Source of the DNA: an uncultured Bacilli bacterium
GTDB taxonomy: Bacteria; Bacillota_I; Bacilli_A; RF39; UBA660
DNA: 64,000 nucleotides
Direction of reading: 5' to 3'
Assembly: GCA_950097225.1 (NCBI GenBank)
Contig: CATNCE010000004.1
Location: 2,493-66,492 of the forward strand
Both the position numbers and the translations under genes were made by a program. Under the pieces are notes generated by a model. The model searched no databases. It saw nothing but the letters and a program-made list of their open reading frames with translations, and had not been told where the DNA came from. Below, piece by piece: positions 41,827-64,000 of this stretch. Position 1 is the stretch's first letter. Every line of letters starts with the position of its first letter.

Positions 41827-42270
41827 CTACATCATATCTTGCTCTTCTGAGTCGTCCATAATTACTAATTCTTTTAAATCATCATCGTCATCGTCATCAT
41901 CTACTGTATCATCATCATAGTTTATCTCATCCTCTTCATCATCAGAATCGGTAATAATTTCTTCGTCTTCAACAACTATTTCCTCTTCTTCCTCTTCTTC
42001 ATCTTCAATAACTACTTTTGTAGAGTGATTCTCTTTTAAATCCCAGAAGCCTTTTTCTAACATAATGAATCTCTTATCAGTTGATAAAAGGCCAAAAAAG
42101 TCCCCTATTTTGCTTTCAAAATAACTTTCAGGTAAGCCCATTATCTTGATAACTTCTTGGAACATATTTTGTATGGTCATTTTCTTTCCATATTCTTTTA
42201 AGACTAAATTAGCAATATCAGCGTGTGACATACTCTCTAATTCTTCTTGAGATAATTTTATTGATTTCAT
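41827..42270 (-). CDS. rpoE: RNA polymerase delta subunit
   Basis: N-terminal HARE-HTH (DIANLVLKEYGKKMTIQNMFQEV...FWDLKENH) and a poly-Asp/Glu tail. The ATG follows AGGAGG. Confidence 0.85.
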   Translation of the reverse strand: MKSIKLSQEELESMSHADIANLVLKEYGKKMTIQNMFQEVIKIMGLPESYFESKIGDFFGLLSTDKRFIMLEKGFWDLKENHSTKVVIEDEEEEEEEIVVEDEEIITDSDDEEDEINYDDDTVDDDDDDDDLKELVIMDDSEEQDMM

Positions 42271-42396
42271 ATAATACCTCCTAATCACAAAAACATTATA
42301 TGTATGTAATCAAAAAAATGTCATTGTTACTTAAAACAATACTAATTTTATCATATAATTATCCGTTGTCAACAGAAACTTTACATCAGTGTAAAA

Positions 42397-44775: not shown

Positions 44776-45348
44776 GTGAGTGTGGAAGAATCTGTTTTTG
44801 CGGGAATGGCATTGTTCTTGATAATATTCTTTTTGATATTCGGACTAATTGCAATTGTAGCTAGTATTTTCTGTTTAATTGGAAACTATAAGTTTTATGA
44901 AAAGATGGGTGTCCCTGGTTGGAAAGCAATTATCCCTTTTTATAATCAATGGGTATTAGTGGAAATGGCTGGCTTAGATCCATATTGGTTCGTATTATTA
45001 ATTGCGCCTGTTGTTTTATCAATATTAAGTGCAATTTTACCATTTATCGGACTATTATCATGGGTTGGATCTTTAGCAATGATTTTAGCTAATATAAGCA
45101 TTTATACTAATATTAGTAAGATGTTACATAAGGATACCGGCTGGATAATCTGTGGAGTGATATTCGGGCCAGTTATGTTAGCTATTGCTGGCTTTAGTAA
45201 TAAAACAGAAATTGATAAGTCAATGACTTTTGATAAGAATGGTTTATTTGCTAGCATGGGCAATAAACAAGCTAATTCGAATACTAATACAGTTAATACT
45301 GACAATCAAAATTCAGAAGACACAAACAAAAAAGAAGAAGACAATTAG
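44776..45348 (+). CDS. membrane protein (DUF5684-like)
   Basis: Several TM helices and the GWKAIIPFYNQWVLVEMAG motif. Family assignment is from memory. Confidence 0.5.
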   Translation: MSVEESVFAGMALFLIIFFLIFGLIAIVASIFCLIGNYKFYEKMGVPGWKAIIPFYNQWVLVEMAGLDPYWFVLLIAPVVLSILSAILPFIGLLSWVGSLAMILANISIYTNISKMLHKDTGWIICGVIFGPVMLAIAGFSNKTEIDKSMTFDKNGLFASMGNKQANSNTNTVNTDNQNSEDTNKKEEDN

Positions 45349-46428
45349 TTATTTGTCTTCTTTTTCTTCGGGAATACGAACGATAAATTGATAAAATGGA
45401 TCAAAGTCAAATTCCTCTACTTCAAGAGCAACTTGATTTTTTTTAGCGTTAGCAATGATTTTTTTGATTCCTTCGATAACATCTTGACGAGTTTGATATT
45501 CAGGTTCTTTATAAACTTTCTCTTCAATTTCTTGAATAGTTTCAATTTCATCTGGTTCCTCTTCGTCATCTAATTCTAATAATTCATAGTCTCTTTCAAC
45601 CGAATCGGAAGCATTAATAGGCGTTTTAAAGGGATTAAATCCAAGGGATGGGTTCATATTAACAGATTCATTTTCTAGATTGTTGAAGAAAAGAGAATCT
45701 TTTTTCTTTTCTCTTGGAACTTCATTATTATAAACATCGGTCTTAGGGGTATAAGAATTAGCTAGAATATCAACGGAATTGCTGACTAAGCCGTCGATAT
45801 CAATATCCCCATTTTTTTGAAATACGCCTTGAATGATATCAATTTCATTGTCCAGTCTTCTTACGGGCCATTTTTCAGTAATTATTTTTTGAAGTAACTC
45901 GACTTGCTTACCTTTGTCATTTACTCTTAAAAGGCTTCTGGCGTGTCTTTCGCTGATTTTATCATGCAAAACAGCGTCTTGAACTGGCTCTGCTAAAGTT
46001 AAAAGACGAATTTTGTTGGCAACACTGGATTGACTAGTACCTAATCTTTTAGCAAGTTGTTCTTGTGTTACATAGTTTCGATCGAGCAATTTCTTATATG
46101 ATTTAGCTTCTTCGATAGCTGATAGGTTGCGACGATGCGTATTTTCAATTATGGCTACTTCGGCTGATTCATTGTCATCGAGTTCAGCAATAATGGCTGG
46201 AACACTTGTTAAACCCGCCAAGGAAGCAGCTTTAAAACGACGCTCTCCGGCGATTATTTCAAACTTATCTCCTGCTCTTCTAAGTACAAGAGGCTGAATT
46301 ATTCCATGCTCTTTTATTGATGCTGCTAGTTCGTCTAAGGCTTCTTTATCAAATTGAAGTCTTGGTTGAAAGCGATTAGGAATAATACTATCAATATTAA
46401 TTAATCTTATTTGTGCTTCCATTTTCAT
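45349..46428 (-). CDS. ParB/Spo0J/Noc-family protein with Noc-like HTH and C-terminus and a long acidic insertion
   Basis: ParB N-domain (IPNRFQPR, GIIQPLVLRR, IIAGERRFKAA), HTH (VTQEQLAKRLGTSQSSVANKIRLL), ISERHARSLL, and C-terminal EVEEFDFDPFYQFIVRIPEE. Directly downstream of rsmG. No parA/soj adjacent. Confidence 0.85.
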   Translation of the reverse strand: MKMEAQIRLINIDSIIPNRFQPRLQFDKEALDELAASIKEHGIIQPLVLRRAGDKFEIIAGERRFKAASLAGLTSVPAIIAELDDNESAEVAIIENTHRRNLSAIEEAKSYKKLLDRNYVTQEQLAKRLGTSQSSVANKIRLLTLAEPVQDAVLHDKISERHARSLLRVNDKGKQVELLQKIITEKWPVRRLDNEIDIIQGVFQKNGDIDIDGLVSNSVDILANSYTPKTDVYNNEVPREKKKDSLFFNNLENESVNMNPSLGFNPFKTPINASDSVERDYELLELDDEEEPDEIETIQEIEEKVYKEPEYQTRQDVIEGIKKIIANAKKNQVALEVEEFDFDPFYQFIVRIPEEKEDK

Positions 46429-46473
46429 GAAATATTTCTCCCCTTTTTATTTTTATCCTATATTTATATTACT

Positions 46474-47190
46474 TTATTTTAGGTATTTTTTCAATGACTT
46501 TTTAATTTTATCATATGAACGGGGATATCCACTTGGGGTTTTAGCGTCTTTTTTTATTTTAAGTATGTTGCGCATCGATTCCTCTTTAGGTAAGGAAAAA
46601 CACTCAATTTTATCAATTTGGCCATGCATTGTGGCTAGGATATCTTTTGATATATTAAGTTCATCTTCAATGTTGCCTTTTAAAGGAATAAAGTAGCCCT
46701 CTACTTTTACTAAAGGCAAGCATAGCTCAATTAATACTGGCAAGGCAGCTACAGCACGAGAGGTTACAACATCGAATAATTCTGAGTGTTTATGAGCATA
46801 AATCTCACTGCGCTCGTTGATAGCTTCAACATTCTCCAAATTTAATTTAGCTATTAAACTATTTAAAAATGTTACTTTCTTATTATTAGAGTCGATTAGT
46901 GTTACGGATAGATGGGGAAAGACAATTTTTAAAACCAAACCAGGAAATCCAGCACCAGAGCCAACATCGGCCAAAGTATTAACACTATTTAAATCTATTA
47001 CTTTAGCAATAGTTAATGAATCATAAAAATGTTTTAAGTAAATAAGTTTTATATCGGTAATAGCAGTTAAATTAGTGTGTTGGTTGTATTCTATTAAATA
47101 TTTGGCATAAATTTCCAAGTTATTTAGCATAGTATCAGTTAGAGATATTCCTAATTCTTTGACGCTATTTATAAATTCTTCAGGCTTCAT
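46474..47190 (-). CDS. rsmG: 16S rRNA m7G527 methyltransferase RsmG (GidB)
   Basis: DVGSGAGFPGLVLKI SAM motif. Conserved position after mnmG. Confidence 0.92.
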   Translation of the reverse strand: MKPEEFINSVKELGISLTDTMLNNLEIYAKYLIEYNQHTNLTAITDIKLIYLKHFYDSLTIAKVIDLNSVNTLADVGSGAGFPGLVLKIVFPHLSVTLIDSNNKKVTFLNSLIAKLNLENVEAINERSEIYAHKHSELFDVVTSRAVAALPVLIELCLPLVKVEGYFIPLKGNIEDELNISKDILATMHGQIDKIECFSLPKEESMRNILKIKKDAKTPSGYPRSYDKIKKSLKKYLK

Positions 47191-52136: not shown

Positions 52137-52474
52137 ATTTTCACCTTTTTTTCCATTAAGTTTATTAGCTCTAGTTCTAATTCTTGATAACTAGCGCTTA
52201 ATGAACTTGTTTTTACTATTATAATATAATCTTGGTGATTTGAAAATAACTTTTTATTGGTTGTTAATAACATTCGCATTTGGCGTTTTAATTTATTTCG
52301 AGTAACAGCATTTCCAACTTTTTTCCCTACAGCAACGCCAAAACGTGGATGTGCGAAAGTACTTTCCTTATTATATATAACAAAATATTTATTTTTTTTA
52401 TATCTTCCTGTGGCAATGATGTCATCAAATTCTTTATGTTCCTTAACTATTTCATATTTTTTCATATGCTTCAC
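52133..52474 (-). CDS. rnpA: RNase P protein component
   Basis: GVAVGKKVGNAVTRNKLKRQMR signature. Overlaps the yidC start. Confidence 0.92.
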   Translation of the reverse strand: MKHMKKYEIVKEHKEFDDIIATGRYKKNKYFVIYNKESTFAHPRFGVAVGKKVGNAVTRNKLKRQMRMLLTTNKKLFSNHQDYIIIVKTSSLSASYQELELELINLMEKKVKI

Positions 52475-52516
52475 CCACTCTTAAAGTAAAAAAACCACGA
52501 ATTTTTGTGGCTTACA

Positions 52517-52639
52517 TTATTTGCAAAGTACCTTGCGTCCTTTAGCTCTTCTGCTTTTTAGAATTTTTGTATTTTTACGTGCAAAGAAACCATGTTTTTT
52601 TGCTTTCTTGCGATTATTTGGTTGATAAGTTCTTTTCAT
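52517..52639 (-). CDS. rpmH: 50S ribosomal protein L34 (below the ORF-track length cutoff)
   Basis: Hand translation of the minus strand gives [53 protein letters not shown] upstream. Confidence 0.9.
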
Positions 52640-52747
52640 ATTTGCTCCACCTCCACATCTCTAAAGCAAGGTTATTATATTATATATGAAATTATAAGTC
52701 AACTAAATTCAGTTATTTAGCCCTTTATATTCGCTTATAAAAATTCT

Positions 52748-52980
52748 TGTTGAAAAACATGTACTTATCAACACGATTAGGGATCTTAATACAGTTATCA
52801 ACAGTTTCAACGTTGATTGTTAATAAGTTTTCAAGTACTTTTAATAACTATTTTTTTATTTTGTTGAAAGGGTTGAAAAGTAGGATAAAATACTATATTA
52901 TAGATGACTAAGAGTTGAAAAATATGTTGAAAACGGTGTTGATAAAGATATTTTTGATTTTTTGCTTTACTTTTTCAACT
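52748..52980. promoter_or_regulatory. oriC part 1: DnaA-box cluster upstream of dnaA
   Basis: At least 9 nonamers of the form TT(A/T)TCAACA or close variants, in both orientations. Starts: 52748, 52765, 52795, 52862, 52871, 52913, 52925, 52937, 52972. Confidence 0.8.
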
Positions 52981-53029
52981 AAAAAGTTATAAAATTTAAT
53001 TAGTTATGAGACTAGGACAGGGTGGTTAA

Positions 53030-54379
53030 ATGGACAGAGAGAAATTTTGGAAAAATTGTCTGGATTATATTTATTCAAAAGTATCAACGATTTCATTTAA
53101 TATCTGGTTCAAAGATGCTGAATTAGTAAATATAAATAATGGAAATTTAGTAATTAAAGTTAATTCAACATATATAAAACAACATCTAACTACTTATTAT
53201 GATGATGTCATTGAAGAGGCAATTAATAATGAATCTGATGTGACTTATACTTATGAAATAGTAACGCAGGATGAAATAGTACACGATGAACCAGTAGTTA
53301 TTGAAGAGAGAATTGAGATTCCTAAATATAAAGACAATAATTCGAACTTAAATAAGGCTTATACTTTTGATAATTTTGTAATAGGGGAAACGAATCGTTT
53401 GGCAGCTACTGTAGGACTTTCTGTTGCTGAAGAACCAGGAAAAATATATAATCCATTATTTATATATGGAAAAAGCGGACTTGGGAAAACTCATTTGATG
53501 CATGCAATCGGAAATTTTATCAAGGAAAATTCAAGTAAAACCGTACTTTATATAACTAGTGAAACATTTATTGATGATTTTACGCGTTTATATAAAAAAG
53601 ATGATAGCAAATACGAATTAGAGGAGAATTTTAAGGATAAGTACCGAAATGTCGATGTTTTGATTATTGATGATATTCAATTTTTAGGAGGAGCGACAAA
53701 AACACAAGATGAATTTTTTAATACATTCAATTTTCTTCACGAAGGAAAAAAACAAATAATAATTAGTTCAGATAGATCACCTGATGACTTAAAATTGTTA
53801 GAGGATCGTTTAAAAACGCGTTTTTCCTGGGGGATAACAGTTAACATAACACCGCCAGATTATGAACTGCGATTAAAGATTATAAAAAATAAGATAACAG
53901 GCCACGAAGTTTCGCGATTAATAAAGAATGAGGTTCTTGAGTACATAGCTAATAATTGTGAAAGCGATGTTCGTCATTTAGAGGGTGCTATTAATCGTCT
54001 CTATGCAGTAACAGCAATGTATTCACCAAAGGAAATCAATTTAGAATTTGCCCAAGATGCCTTGCGTGATTATATAGGAAATTCTCTTTATATAACGAAT
54101 AACATCGCCAAAATTCAAAAAGCCGTAGCAGAGTACTTTGACTTAACTGTAGAAAACTTAAAAAGCAAGAAGAGAACAGCTAATATTAATAATGCTCGGC
54201 AAATCGCGATGTATATATGTAAGATGACAACAGAGGAGACAATTGAGCGAATAGGTTTAGAATTTAATCGCGATCATGCGACTGTTATTCATGCTTGTGA
54301 TAAAATTGATGAAGAATATAAGAAAAGTGATGAATTGCGCGAGCAAATTAAAGAGATTAAGAATAAAATTAGTAACTAA
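53030..54379 (+). CDS. dnaA: chromosomal replication initiator DnaA
   Basis: AAA+ motifs GKSGLGKTHLMHAIGN, LIIDDIQFL, and domain IV (RQIAMYICK...DHATVIHA). Confidence 0.97.
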   Translation: MDREKFWKNCLDYIYSKVSTISFNIWFKDAELVNINNGNLVIKVNSTYIKQHLTTYYDDVIEEAINNESDVTYTYEIVTQDEIVHDEPVVIEERIEIPKYKDNNSNLNKAYTFDNFVIGETNRLAATVGLSVAEEPGKIYNPLFIYGKSGLGKTHLMHAIGNFIKENSSKTVLYITSETFIDDFTRLYKKDDSKYELEENFKDKYRNVDVLIIDDIQFLGGATKTQDEFFNTFNFLHEGKKQIIISSDRSPDDLKLLEDRLKTRFSWGITVNITPPDYELRLKIIKNKITGHEVSRLIKNEVLEYIANNCESDVRHLEGAINRLYAVTAMYSPKEINLEFAQDALRDYIGNSLYITNNIAKIQKAVAEYFDLTVENLKSKKRTANINNARQIAMYICKMTTEETIERIGLEFNRDHATVIHACDKIDEEYKKSDELREQIKEIKNKISN

Positions 54380-61843: not shown

Positions 61844-61859
61844 TGTTTCACGTGAAACT
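61844..61859. promoter_or_regulatory. parS-like site 1 (15/16)
   Basis: TGTTTCACGTGAAACT. The perfect palindrome is 14 bp (61845-61858). Confidence 0.8.
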
Positions 61860-61903
61860 ACACATTTTGAAAATCTGTTTTTAACATGTTTAATGATAAC
61901 CAA

Positions 61904-61919
61904 TGTTTCACGTGAAACA
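61904..61919. promoter_or_regulatory. parS site 2
   Basis: TGTTTCACGTGAAACA. The perfect palindrome extends to 20 bp (61902-61921). Confidence 0.85.
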
Positions 61920-62005
61920 TTCATTTAATATAATTATCTGTGTTTATGAGGGAAAAAAGTACTAAAATATTCAAAATACAGATAAATAGCATAGTACTTT
62001 TCTAA

Positions 62006-62021
62006 TGTTTCACGTGAAACA
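62006..62021. promoter_or_regulatory. parS site 3
   Basis: TGTTTCACGTGAAACA. The perfect palindrome extends to 32 bp (61998-62029). Confidence 0.85.
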
Positions 62022-62111
62022 TTAGAAAATAATAGTTATGGTGTTAAAAATCGAACCTCATAATCAGAATTTGTAGCTTAATTGCTAGAAGTGGGTTATC
62101 TATTTATACGA

Positions 62112-62127
62112 TGTTTCACGTGAAACA
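62112..62127. promoter_or_regulatory. parS site 4
   Basis: TGTTTCACGTGAAACA. The perfect palindrome is 18 bp (62111-62128). Confidence 0.85.
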
Positions 62128-62324
62128 TTGATTGTTGGCATTGATAAATAAATCCGATGTTAGTTTTAATTATATTATACTGAAAGGTTTATGTCAGAGT
62201 TCAATATTTAACTTGAGATGTAGCATGCTTTCTGCTTTTTTTATAAATAGTTCCTAAAAAGGATGATAATTTCTAACAAATAATTAATATTGGATTATAT
62301 ATTAAGTTGGTTAAAATTTCACAA

Positions 62325-62340
62325 TGTTTCACGTGAAACA
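62325..62340. promoter_or_regulatory. parS site 5
   Basis: TGTTTCACGTGAAACA. The perfect palindrome extends to 30 bp (62318-62347). Confidence 0.85.
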
Positions 62341-62419
62341 TTGTGAATATAAATATTTCATATTTTATCTAGAATAATTCTTATGAACTTAATTTTTATT
62401 CTTCGCTTTCTTATTGATA

Positions 62420-62435
62420 TGTTTCACGTGAAACA
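62420..62435. promoter_or_regulatory. parS site 6
   Basis: TGTTTCACGTGAAACA. The perfect palindrome extends to 28 bp (62414-62441). Confidence 0.85.
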
Positions 62436-62537
62436 TATCAAGTAAATATTCTTTGTTTTTTTATAAAAGAAACAATGATTTTAAGCAAAAAAGTAAATAT
62501 TAGATAGTGTATTTGGAATCTATCAGTCGTTTTTCAA

Positions 62538-62553
62538 TGTTTCACGTGAAACA
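62538..62553. promoter_or_regulatory. parS site 7
   Basis: TGTTTCACGTGAAACA. The perfect palindrome extends to 28 bp (62532-62559). Confidence 0.85.
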
Positions 62554-62634
62554 TTGAAAGAAAATAAAGATGAAATTAACTAATGTATTTATAAAGAAGG
62601 AGTTGAATACTTATGACTGCAAGTTCGATTTATA

Positions 62635-62650
62635 TGTTTCACGTGAAACA
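62635..62650. promoter_or_regulatory. parS site 8
   Basis: TGTTTCACGTGAAACA. The perfect palindrome extends to 22 bp (62632-62653). Confidence 0.85.
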
Positions 62651-62744
62651 TATTTTATACAGATATTTTGTTTTTGAAAGAAATGTTATCTTTTTCTGTA
62701 CAAATATTAATAATTATTGAAGTAATGTAAACGTATATCATCAA

Positions 62745-62760
62745 TGTTTCACGTGAAACA
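62745..62760. promoter_or_regulatory. parS site 9
   Basis: TGTTTCACGTGAAACA. The perfect palindrome extends to 20 bp (62743-62762). Confidence 0.85.
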
Positions 62761-62921
62761 TTAGTTGTAAATATAGTTATCAACATTTTATTTTTATTTT
62801 ATTCGTAGATATAAGGCTATTTCTTGAAATCTGTGTGTTGTGACAGAAATTTAGAATTTGTTTTAAGCATAAAATGGCAAAAAAAGCTATACTTTTTTAT
62901 AAAATATGTTATAATTTAATT

Positions 62922-62998
62922 GCGCAACAGATATGTTAGAACTTGGTCAGGATCGGAAGATAGCAGCCATAATATCCTCTATTTGTGTGCGCTTTTTT
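62922..62998 (+). ncRNA. ffs: small signal recognition particle RNA (4.5S/scRNA type)
   Basis: GGTCAGGATCGGAAGATAGCAGCC matches the conserved SRP domain IV motif (GGUCAGGUCCGGAAGGAAGCAGCC in E. coli 4.5S). The closing helix is GCGCAACAGATA / TATTTGTGTGCGC followed by a T-run. Extended -10 TGtTATAAT at 62907-62915. Position next to tadA/dnaX as in Bacillus. Confidence 0.75.
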
Positions 62999-63012
62999 TA
63001 TGAGGTGATAAT

Positions 63013-63473: not shown

Positions 63474-64000
63474 ATGTATTATAAAGTTTTATATCGAAAG
63501 TATCGTCCAACGAATTTTGATGATTTAGTTGGACAGGATCATATTAAGGGTATTTTAAAAAATTCGATTATTAACAATAAAATTGCTCATGCCTATATGT
63601 TTACGGGCCCAAGAGGGACTGGAAAAACCAGTTCAGCGAAGATTTTTGCAAGAACGCTTAATTGTTTGAATCCTAATGCTGGAATTCCTTGCGGTGAGTG
63701 TGATAATTGTTTGAATTTTAGTACTTCGCCCGATGTAATTGAGATGGACGCAGCTAGTAATAATAGTGTCGATGATATTCGTGAAATTATAGATAATGTG
63801 AGTGTTGCTCCAACTAATAGTAAGTATAAAATTTATATTATTGATGAGGTACACATGCTTTCGAATCAAGCTTGGAATGCTTTTTTGAAAACTTTAGAGG
63901 AGCCTCCACACAACGTAATTTTTATTTTGGCAACAACTGATATTCAAAAAGTGCCGATTACAGTTTTATCCCGTTGTCAGAGGTTTGATTTTCAACGTAT
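63474..64000 (+). CDS. dnaX: DNA polymerase III gamma/tau subunit, 5' part (runs off the window)
   Basis: Hand translation from the ATG at 63474 gives [24 protein letters not shown]...[17 protein letters not shown]...CGECDNC...IIDEVHMLS...TLEEPP...SRCQRFDF. The frame is open to position 64000. Confidence 0.92.

Follow-up and report, generated by a model that had tools for sequence, protein, structure and literature searches.

In the textbook account, Noc is a duplicate of the partition protein ParB that turned into a division inhibitor by gaining a membrane helix as well as a new DNA site. What, then, is the role of a Noc-like protein that has no such helix and whose genome holds one perfect Noc-binding site (NBS), placed beside the centromere? 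This question is raised by a 64-kb stretch of DNA (hereafter 'the window', meaning the whole stretch analyzed) from contig CATNCE010000004.1 of an uncultured bacterium of the GTDB lineage Bacilli_A, RF39, UBA660. The assembly comprises 1.61 Mb in 58 contigs and is 92% complete. The open reading frame (ORF) at 45349–46428 on the reverse strand, here called the noc-like gene, encodes a protein of 359 amino acids (aa), which was the query in our comparisons and which we identify as a Noc-clade paralogue of ParB without the membrane-targeting helix. Our analysis suggests that this protein is probably a Noc-derived clamp acting at the centromere or origin, and that classical nucleoid occlusion is unlikely because there is a single origin-side site and no membrane helix.

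Phylogenetic Position and Specificity Residues

We built a maximum-likelihood tree (IQ-TREE, LG+C20, 54 sequences, 191 columns) from both ParB paralogues of 20 genera of the class, together with reference segments derived from PDB entries. The query and its orthologues grouped with B. subtilis Noc and Geobacillus Noc in a clade with support of 99/96. They fell outside the Spo0J clade (93/94), which contains B. subtilis Spo0J and the Spo0J encoded on contig 18 of the same assembly.

The recognition region, LGTSQSSVANKIRLLTLAEPVQDAVLHDKISERHARSLL (45946–46032, reverse strand), points in the same direction. When it is aligned to B. subtilis Noc and Spo0J, residues Q133, K139, T144 and R161 of the query correspond to positions 173, 179, 184 and 201, for which RTAG has been reported in ParB and QKKR in Noc (PMC7383237). 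The query reads QKTR at these positions. Its genus shows QK(T/S/N)R and the majority of Nocs in the class QKNR, with N, S, T or K occurring at position 184 in the class as a whole. It has been reported that Q173 and R201 need only a single Lys, at 179 or at 184, to be licensed (PMC7383237). Therefore, the T at 184 is no signal of ParB-type specificity. Judged from the tree and these residues, the noc-like gene encodes a true member of the Noc clade and not a ParB/Noc intermediate.

An earlier reading of the window, made from the sequence only, had already called the protein and its recognition region Noc-like. Both calls held: the region reads as quoted there, the B. subtilis Noc and Spo0J strings given for comparison match the PDB sequences, and the clade support, the Q/K/R residues and the C-terminal domain all agree. 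The same reading had counted three Noc-type residues and one ParB-type residue; the Q, K and R stand as Noc-type, but the T occupies a permissive position and is not ParB-type. Its description of the protein as 'intermediate-looking' had to be abandoned, given the support of 99/96 for the Noc clade and the variability of position 184 among Nocs.

We also considered profile scores. The best NCBIfam model for the query is TIGR04285 (nucleoid_noc), which aligns over model positions 2–195 of 255 with 268 bits and so falls short of the 315-bit cut-off. Spo0J of the same genome, at 236 bits, falls short as well, and therefore the model separates the two paralogues poorly. We accordingly dropped it as a discriminator between Noc and Spo0J and used the tree and the specificity residues instead.

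The specificity positions also vary elsewhere in the clade. Noc-clade proteins of two relatives, G024 (locus L035) and G025 (locus L071), carry EKSG and EKDG, respectively, and neither genome yielded an NBS with one mismatch or none. The two lineages thus look like a natural shift of DNA specificity.

The parS Array and the Other ParA/ParB Genes

An array of nine parS sites, eight of them perfect and one with one mismatch, lies at 61844–62760 between gyrA and the signal recognition particle (SRP) RNA gene and tadA. Nowhere else does the genome contain a parS site with one mismatch or none. The window has no other ParB-family gene, the noc-like gene is located 15 kb from the array, and the T at 184 of its product is also found in B. 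subtilis Spo0J. The sequence-only reading had raised the alternative that the noc-like protein itself reads parS, as a centromere-binding protein intermediate between ParB and Noc. We consider this extremely improbable. Invariant R173 characterizes parS binders (PMC7383237, Jalal 2020), and because the query has Q at this position, it is very unlikely to be a parS reader. It also has R in place of a small residue at 201 (PMC7383237), it lacks the LG(K/R)GL N-terminal peptide through which ParB interacts with and stimulates ParA, and the tree puts it in the Noc clade.

In addition, a canonical pair is present elsewhere in the genome. Contig 18 carries soj (266 aa) overlapping spo0J (296 aa), and this Spo0J has the N-terminal peptide KALGKGLEQLF and R-L-S-S at the four specificity positions, which is the parS type. 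Throughout the genus, a canonical soj-spo0J pair is present whose Spo0J has R173 and S201. We do not take the noc-like protein as the parS reader and assign the parS role to the Soj-Spo0J pair of contig 18, whose Spo0J, by its residues, is likely the reader of the array. The suggestion that a canonical Spo0J would be encoded elsewhere was thus correct. The observation that the window has a sole ParB-family gene and no parA or soj gene is true of the window, but not of the genome, which has pairs on contigs 18 and 2. Where one contig holds both genes (relatives G003 and G006), spo0J lies 104–140 kb from noc, and the order rsmG-noc-soj-spo0J is retained in other genera of the family.

The pair on contig 2 (C2:16178–17375; locus L005 330–2190, reverse strand) is a third one, consisting of a divergent ParA (319 aa) and a ParB-like protein (336 aa). 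It adjoins a 332-aa ORF without an assigned function and probably serves an integrated mobile element as its partition module. Separately, the window contains TGTTTCGCGAGAAACA at 1941–1956, a perfect palindrome two mismatches away from parS, in a coding region approximately 60 kb away from the array. The palindrome could have arisen by chance or could be a weak site for ParB.

The Missing N-Terminal Helix

An N-terminal amphipathic helix was reported in every Noc homologue examined (Adams 2015, PMC4331003), and the published view is that it is universal in Noc and required for function (PMC4331003). The query has no such helix, which would be expected at about residues 1–10 or 1–15. Its residues 5–6 align with residues 26–29 of characterized Nocs, and it has about 21–23 N-terminal residues fewer than B. 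subtilis or Geobacillus Noc, which corresponds to the amphipathic helix plus its spacer. The hydrophobic moments of its N-terminal windows are 0.04–0.29.

The reading frame leaves no room for an unrecognized extension. A stop codon is located six codons upstream of the ATG (the in-frame upstream peptide is KGEKYF), and therefore an N-terminal extension is impossible. The spacer between rsmG and noc (46429–46473, reverse strand) measures 45 bp, too short for an extension, and the open frame comprises 365 codons against the 359 of the ORF. We also considered a hidden extension reached through an alternative start or a frameshift, which was excluded by the upstream stop and by the arrangement seen across the genus: all 21 other species that were searched share the short start MKME(A/S)QI... 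with an upstream stop close by. On the evidence of the reading frame and the alignment, the loss of the helix in the noc-like protein is demonstrated. The sequence-only reading was right that the Noc N-terminal amphipathic extension is lacking, as the stop codon and the alignment to characterized Nocs confirm, but it placed the start six residues before IPNRFQPR, whereas this block begins at residue 16.

The same short start recurred in the members examined from six further genera of the family. Among the best 150 of the representatives of 50%-identity clusters, 141 have the PNRFQPR box 13–21 residues from the start. These 150 proteins are mostly 340–980 aa long, have QKxR as specificity residues and share a conserved C-terminal ending, ...EEFDFEDxYQIIIKIxK. 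Helix-bearing Nocs of normal length occur in other families of the class, where the N-termini read, for example, MASLFNIL... or MGLFDFLG....

The NBS in dnaX

No NBS was found within the window, and exactly one perfect copy, TATTTCCCGGGAAATA, exists in the 1.61-Mb, 92%-complete genome. It is located in dnaX, the 5' part of which (63474–63998, forward strand) ends the window; the site itself is at C4:67024–67039, equivalent to window positions 64532–64547, and thus 532 bp beyond the window end. The claim that the window holds nine canonical parS sites and no NBS was accurate for the window, apart from the one mismatched parS site, but it missed this perfect NBS just outside. The distances from the NBS are 1.8 kb to the parS array and approximately 11.5 kb to dnaA.

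We then compared the site with chance expectation. About 5e-4 perfect copies are expected from composition, against one observed, and none of 40 composition-matched palindromes had a perfect match in the genome. Degenerate NBS sequences with two and three mismatches occur at the level of chance as given by the same 40 palindromes (5 versus 4.5 and 47 versus 58.8, respectively). A de novo count of 12–16-bp palindromes revealed no enriched GC-containing palindrome besides parS; AT-only palindromes recur.

The NBS is also written in rare codons. The site codes for I-S-R-E-I with TCC (4.6%) and CGG (1.3%), which are the least used codons for Ser and Arg, and for which the joint probability is about 4e-5. 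Together with its flanks, the 16-mer makes up a 20-bp palindrome. A comparison of 17 distinct dnaX sequences from the genus showed no variation in the 16-mer, third codon positions included, whereas the flanking third codon positions have a mean identity of 0.67 and an Arg codon close by is CGC, CGT, CGA or AGA. The NBS falls on identical dnaX codons in the 18 species compared. Among the 21 other genomes of the genus, exactly one perfect NBS was counted in 19 and four were counted in another; the last, which is 85% complete, has none. The control pattern has zero matches in all genomes of the genus. By this pattern of conservation, the NBS is under selection as DNA, beyond the requirement of the protein. 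We suggest that this single perfect NBS is likely the cis-site of the noc-like protein.

NBS and parS Sites across the Family

To place the dnaX site in a wider context, we counted NBS copies across the family. Between 1 and 10 perfect copies, locally clustered, were present in 122 of 149 genomes (in 87 genera), and the control pattern had no match. Repeated parS-NBS modules at fixed offsets occupy the gyrA-tadA spacer in five genomes, which belong to four other genera, and the offsets are, from start to start, 28 bp (with the 12-bp spacer TTGTGxATAxAT), 58 bp or approximately 95 bp. In the relative G006, three extra NBS copies flank and bisect a six-site parS array. The paired modules and our locus have in common the helix-less Noc and the gyrA-tadA/dnaX neighbourhood; they differ in that here, and in most of the genus, the parS array is free of NBS, the NBS is in dnaX and soj-spo0J has been relocated. 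Another arrangement is seen in the relative G084 (locus L080 7769–7998), where four tandem NBS copies (three perfect, one with one mismatch) follow each other with a 71-bp period and with no parS between them, in a stretch that begins directly after gyrA and runs off the contig end.

These comparisons bear on the meaning of the dnaX position. Because the genus's only NBS lies within dnaX at conserved codons, and because ParB-family clamps can be long-range repressors according to a review on KorB (PMC13768133), the noc-like protein could be imagined as a KorB-like CTP-dependent regulator or roadblock at this NBS, tuning the dnaX-ybaB-recR operon or genes of the origin region. However, in other genera of the family the NBS is paired with parS in the non-coding spacer between gyrA and tadA, or lies in rsmG or elsewhere among the genes. 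Since these genera place it outside dnaX, the common factor is nearness to the centromere and not dnaX, and we regard the KorB-like explanation as improbable.

A different pattern was seen with helix-bearing proteins. In a small sample of four genomes with a helix-bearing Noc, we counted 13–23 dispersed, imperfect NBS-like sites, against 0–11 for the control.

Domains, Linker and Predicted Structure

Apart from the N-terminus, the noc-like protein has the domains expected of the clade. The ParB_N (CTP-binding) domain covers residues 6–97 (46138–46413, reverse strand; PF02195, 112.8 bits) and contains the motifs PNRFQPR, GERRFKAA and ENTHRR. The cytidine triphosphate (CTP)-binding motifs (GERR, ENxxR and QPR) are intact, and G61, E62, R63, R64, E95, N96, R99 and Q45 are invariant or almost so among 37 homologues. 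The HTH_ParB DNA-binding domain follows at residues 101–196 (45841–46128, reverse strand; PF17762, 111.1 bits). The closest relatives in the PDB are Geobacillus Noc (7NG0/7NFU, 199 bits) and B. subtilis Spo0J and Noc (170 bits each). The Noc-type C-terminal (dimerization) domain occupies residues 315–353 (45370–45486, reverse strand) and can be aligned with those of helix-bearing Nocs, but not with the C-terminal domains of Spo0J, which confirms the likeness to the Noc C-terminus proposed in the sequence-only reading. AlphaFold2 (AF2) predicted the three domains confidently, with a disordered acidic linker between them. The confidence score (pLDDT) was 68–90 per 10-residue block, mostly 85–90, in the ParB_N domain, 82–93 in the HTH_ParB domain and 82–86 in the C-terminal domain, which was modeled as a helix and two strands.

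The linker (residues ~200–312; 45493–45831, reverse strand) is rich in E, D and N and has a net charge of −20, with pLDDT below 50 at residues 218–244 and 263–306. The acidic low-complexity insertion noticed earlier, then put at roughly 100 aa, is thus real, with a length of about 110 aa and predicted disorder. Its length differs among homologues, whose total lengths are 340–980 aa. Within the genus, short motifs of the linker are near-invariant between variable flanks, namely SLFFNNLENE..NM, GFNPFK and DY(E/D)LLEL. In the query, KKKDSLFFNNLENESVNM (residues 241–258) and GFNPFK (263–268) are located at 45625–45708 on the reverse strand.

These motifs figure in a second alternative, in which the protein is an ordinary nucleoid-occlusion Noc that still ties DNA to the membrane or blocks division and whose tether comes, in place of an N-terminal helix, from a linker motif (for example KKKDSLFFNNLENE or GFNPFK) or from a partner protein. 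The protein does belong to the Noc clade, its specificity residues are of the NBS type and its C-terminal domain is of the Noc type. Basic residues precede the linker motif, which is highly conserved within the genus and bears a loose likeness to the SxFF..L.E of Noc N-termini, and a heterologous amphipathic helix can substitute for the Noc N-terminus (PMC4331003). On the other hand, the SLFF motif lies in a strongly acidic segment with a pLDDT of about 50–56 and gives no hydrophobic-moment signal; the top windows of the hydrophobic-moment scan are within the helix of the C-terminal domain and not in the linker motifs. AF2 gave KKKDSLFFNNLENE low confidence, with a 4-residue helix just past the SLFF core only. 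Moreover, the motif is specific to the genus, being present in 2 of the best 150 family representatives, while the loss of the helix is family-wide, and one centromere-side NBS per genome is unsuited to surveying a whole nucleoid. The many scattered origin-proximal NBS sites that are a trait of Noc were not found in this 92%-complete draft, which has one perfect NBS. We therefore demoted the idea that KKKDSLFFNNLENE is the Noc helix moved inward to a weak rival, and we consider an ordinary Noc with a substitute tether unlikely. The sequence-only reading had allowed that a soj-spo0J pair and NBS sites elsewhere would make this protein an ordinary Noc. Both were found elsewhere in the genome, but because the protein has no membrane helix and the single NBS is on the centromere side, the query is no ordinary Noc.

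For hints of a common partner, we also searched the rest of the genome for the linker motifs. The sole notable match, LGFNPF, was judged coincidental. It occurs in the ~300-aa disordered C-terminal tail of a 902-aa protein (C10:28472–31180; locus L095 173–2881) that looks like a conjugative coupling protein.

Comparison with Known Systems and Proposed Role

The nearest characterized systems are B. subtilis Noc (YyaA) and Geobacillus thermoleovorans Noc (7OL9, 7NFU, 7NG0, 6Y93), with which the query shares its clade and its position after rsmG. It resembles them in the CTP motifs, in Q173/K179/R201, in the C-terminal domain and in having the cognate 16-bp NBS TATTTCCCGGGAAATA in its genome. It differs from them in the absent N-terminal helix and the TIGR04285 score below the cut-off. 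Its ~110-aa acidic, disordered linker takes the place of the short basic segment seen in the helix-bearing Nocs of relatives. In contrast to the scattered sites of B. subtilis Noc, there is one perfect NBS beside parS, and soj-spo0J is not adjacent in the genus. The scattered sites reportedly number about 70, a figure attributed to Wu and colleagues (2009).

ParB/Spo0J (B. subtilis 6SDK, Caulobacter 6T1F) has the same domain plan, and its perfect palindromic sites, like those of the query, are few and clustered near oriC, a distribution that resembles a centromere. However, the query is outside that clade, has Q and not R at 173, lacks the LG(K/R)GL peptide and an adjacent parA, and has NBS and not parS as its probable site. 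A third comparison concerns function. In Staphylococcus aureus, Noc holds back the initiation of replication (Pang et al. 2017, PMC5540599), and this role beyond the blocking of division is a precedent for an origin-related function of Noc, although S. aureus Noc is membrane-associated, unlike the helix-less query.

From these results we infer the binding of the NBS, the clamping on CTP and the cellular role of the noc-like protein as follows. Dimers would nucleate at the dnaX NBS, close as CTP-dependent clamps once loaded, and spread over the neighbouring centromere and origin region, where the linker motifs would recruit a partner. The protein would then be a second clamp, associated with the centromere, and not an occlusion factor that tethers the whole genome to the membrane. 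As for its output, it may tether the origin through the linker motifs, it may exert boundary or cooperative effects on ParB clamps, or, by analogy with S. aureus Noc, it may take part in replication control.

Several points weigh against this proposal. The query scores below the curated cut-off of TIGR04285 (268 versus 315 bits). The assembly is a 92%-complete draft, and further NBS sites could sit in unassembled DNA. The NBS is intragenic in the genus, so that it may act in dnaX regulation, and the linker motifs may still provide contact with the membrane or the divisome. Finally, the contrast with helix-bearing Nocs comes from four genomes only, one of which (G038) shows a weak excess (19 versus 11). 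Even so, a Noc-derived clamp at the centromere or origin remains the explanation that we favour.

The Locus and Its Neighbours

The gene upstream of noc is rsmG (46474–47190, reverse strand; TIGR00138, 169.8 bits), and the order rsmG-noc is retained in all relatives examined. The sequence-only reading was correct that the noc-like gene directly follows rsmG, from which the 45-bp spacer separates it, and also that the next gene is convergent and abuts the stop of noc. That gene (44776–45348, forward strand) encodes a DUF5684 membrane protein (PF18936) and ends one base before the noc stop. We considered it as a partner or anchor of Noc, and rejected it because it adjoins noc in only 4 of the 22 loci of the genus; in the others, the convergent neighbour is a PBP1A gene.

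In the window, rsmG is preceded by mnmE and mnmG. A probable oriC region lies at 52137–53029, upstream of dnaA (53030–54379), as indicated by gene order, GC skew and boxes. It is flanked by mnmE-mnmG-rsmG-noc on one side and dnaA-dnaN-recF-gyrB-gyrA on the other; the GC skew changes sign near 52 kb, and three TTATCAACA boxes are found at 52765–52945. The SRP RNA, of the small bacterial type, is encoded at 62916–63001 on the forward strand (Rfam RF00169, 59 bits), between the parS array and tadA. The gene for the RNA polymerase delta subunit (41827–42288, reverse strand) encodes a long, nearly pure E/D C-terminal tail.

Biological Meaning

In the full-text literature that we searched, we found no description of helix-less Nocs, of single-NBS genomes or of parS/NBS modules. 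The proteins described here form a large natural clade in which the NBS specificity and the CTP motifs are kept, the helix is absent, and the sites are few, perfect and linked to parS. DNA specificity and membrane binding are thereby separated in nature, and the clade offers a test case for Noc clamp activity without a membrane. It could have arisen by derived re-purposing of a Noc, or it could be a surviving early stage of Noc evolution after the switch in specificity, before membrane binding and scattered sites. For annotation, this means that labels such as 'ParB/RepB/Spo0J family partition protein' conceal a distinct Noc subfamily in these genomes.

For the family as a whole, a broader picture seems to us plausible, with the considerations for and against it about evenly balanced. 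Across this family of small-genome gut Bacilli, Noc would not act in nucleoid occlusion but would be an anchor-less second centromere protein that loads at one or a few perfect NBS copies beside parS or phased with it. The centromere would then consist of Spo0J and Noc CTP clamps together, and in the present genus the Noc part would have been pared down to one rare-codon NBS in dnaX. This raises the possibility that two ParB-family clamps cooperate with or restrain each other at one centromere.

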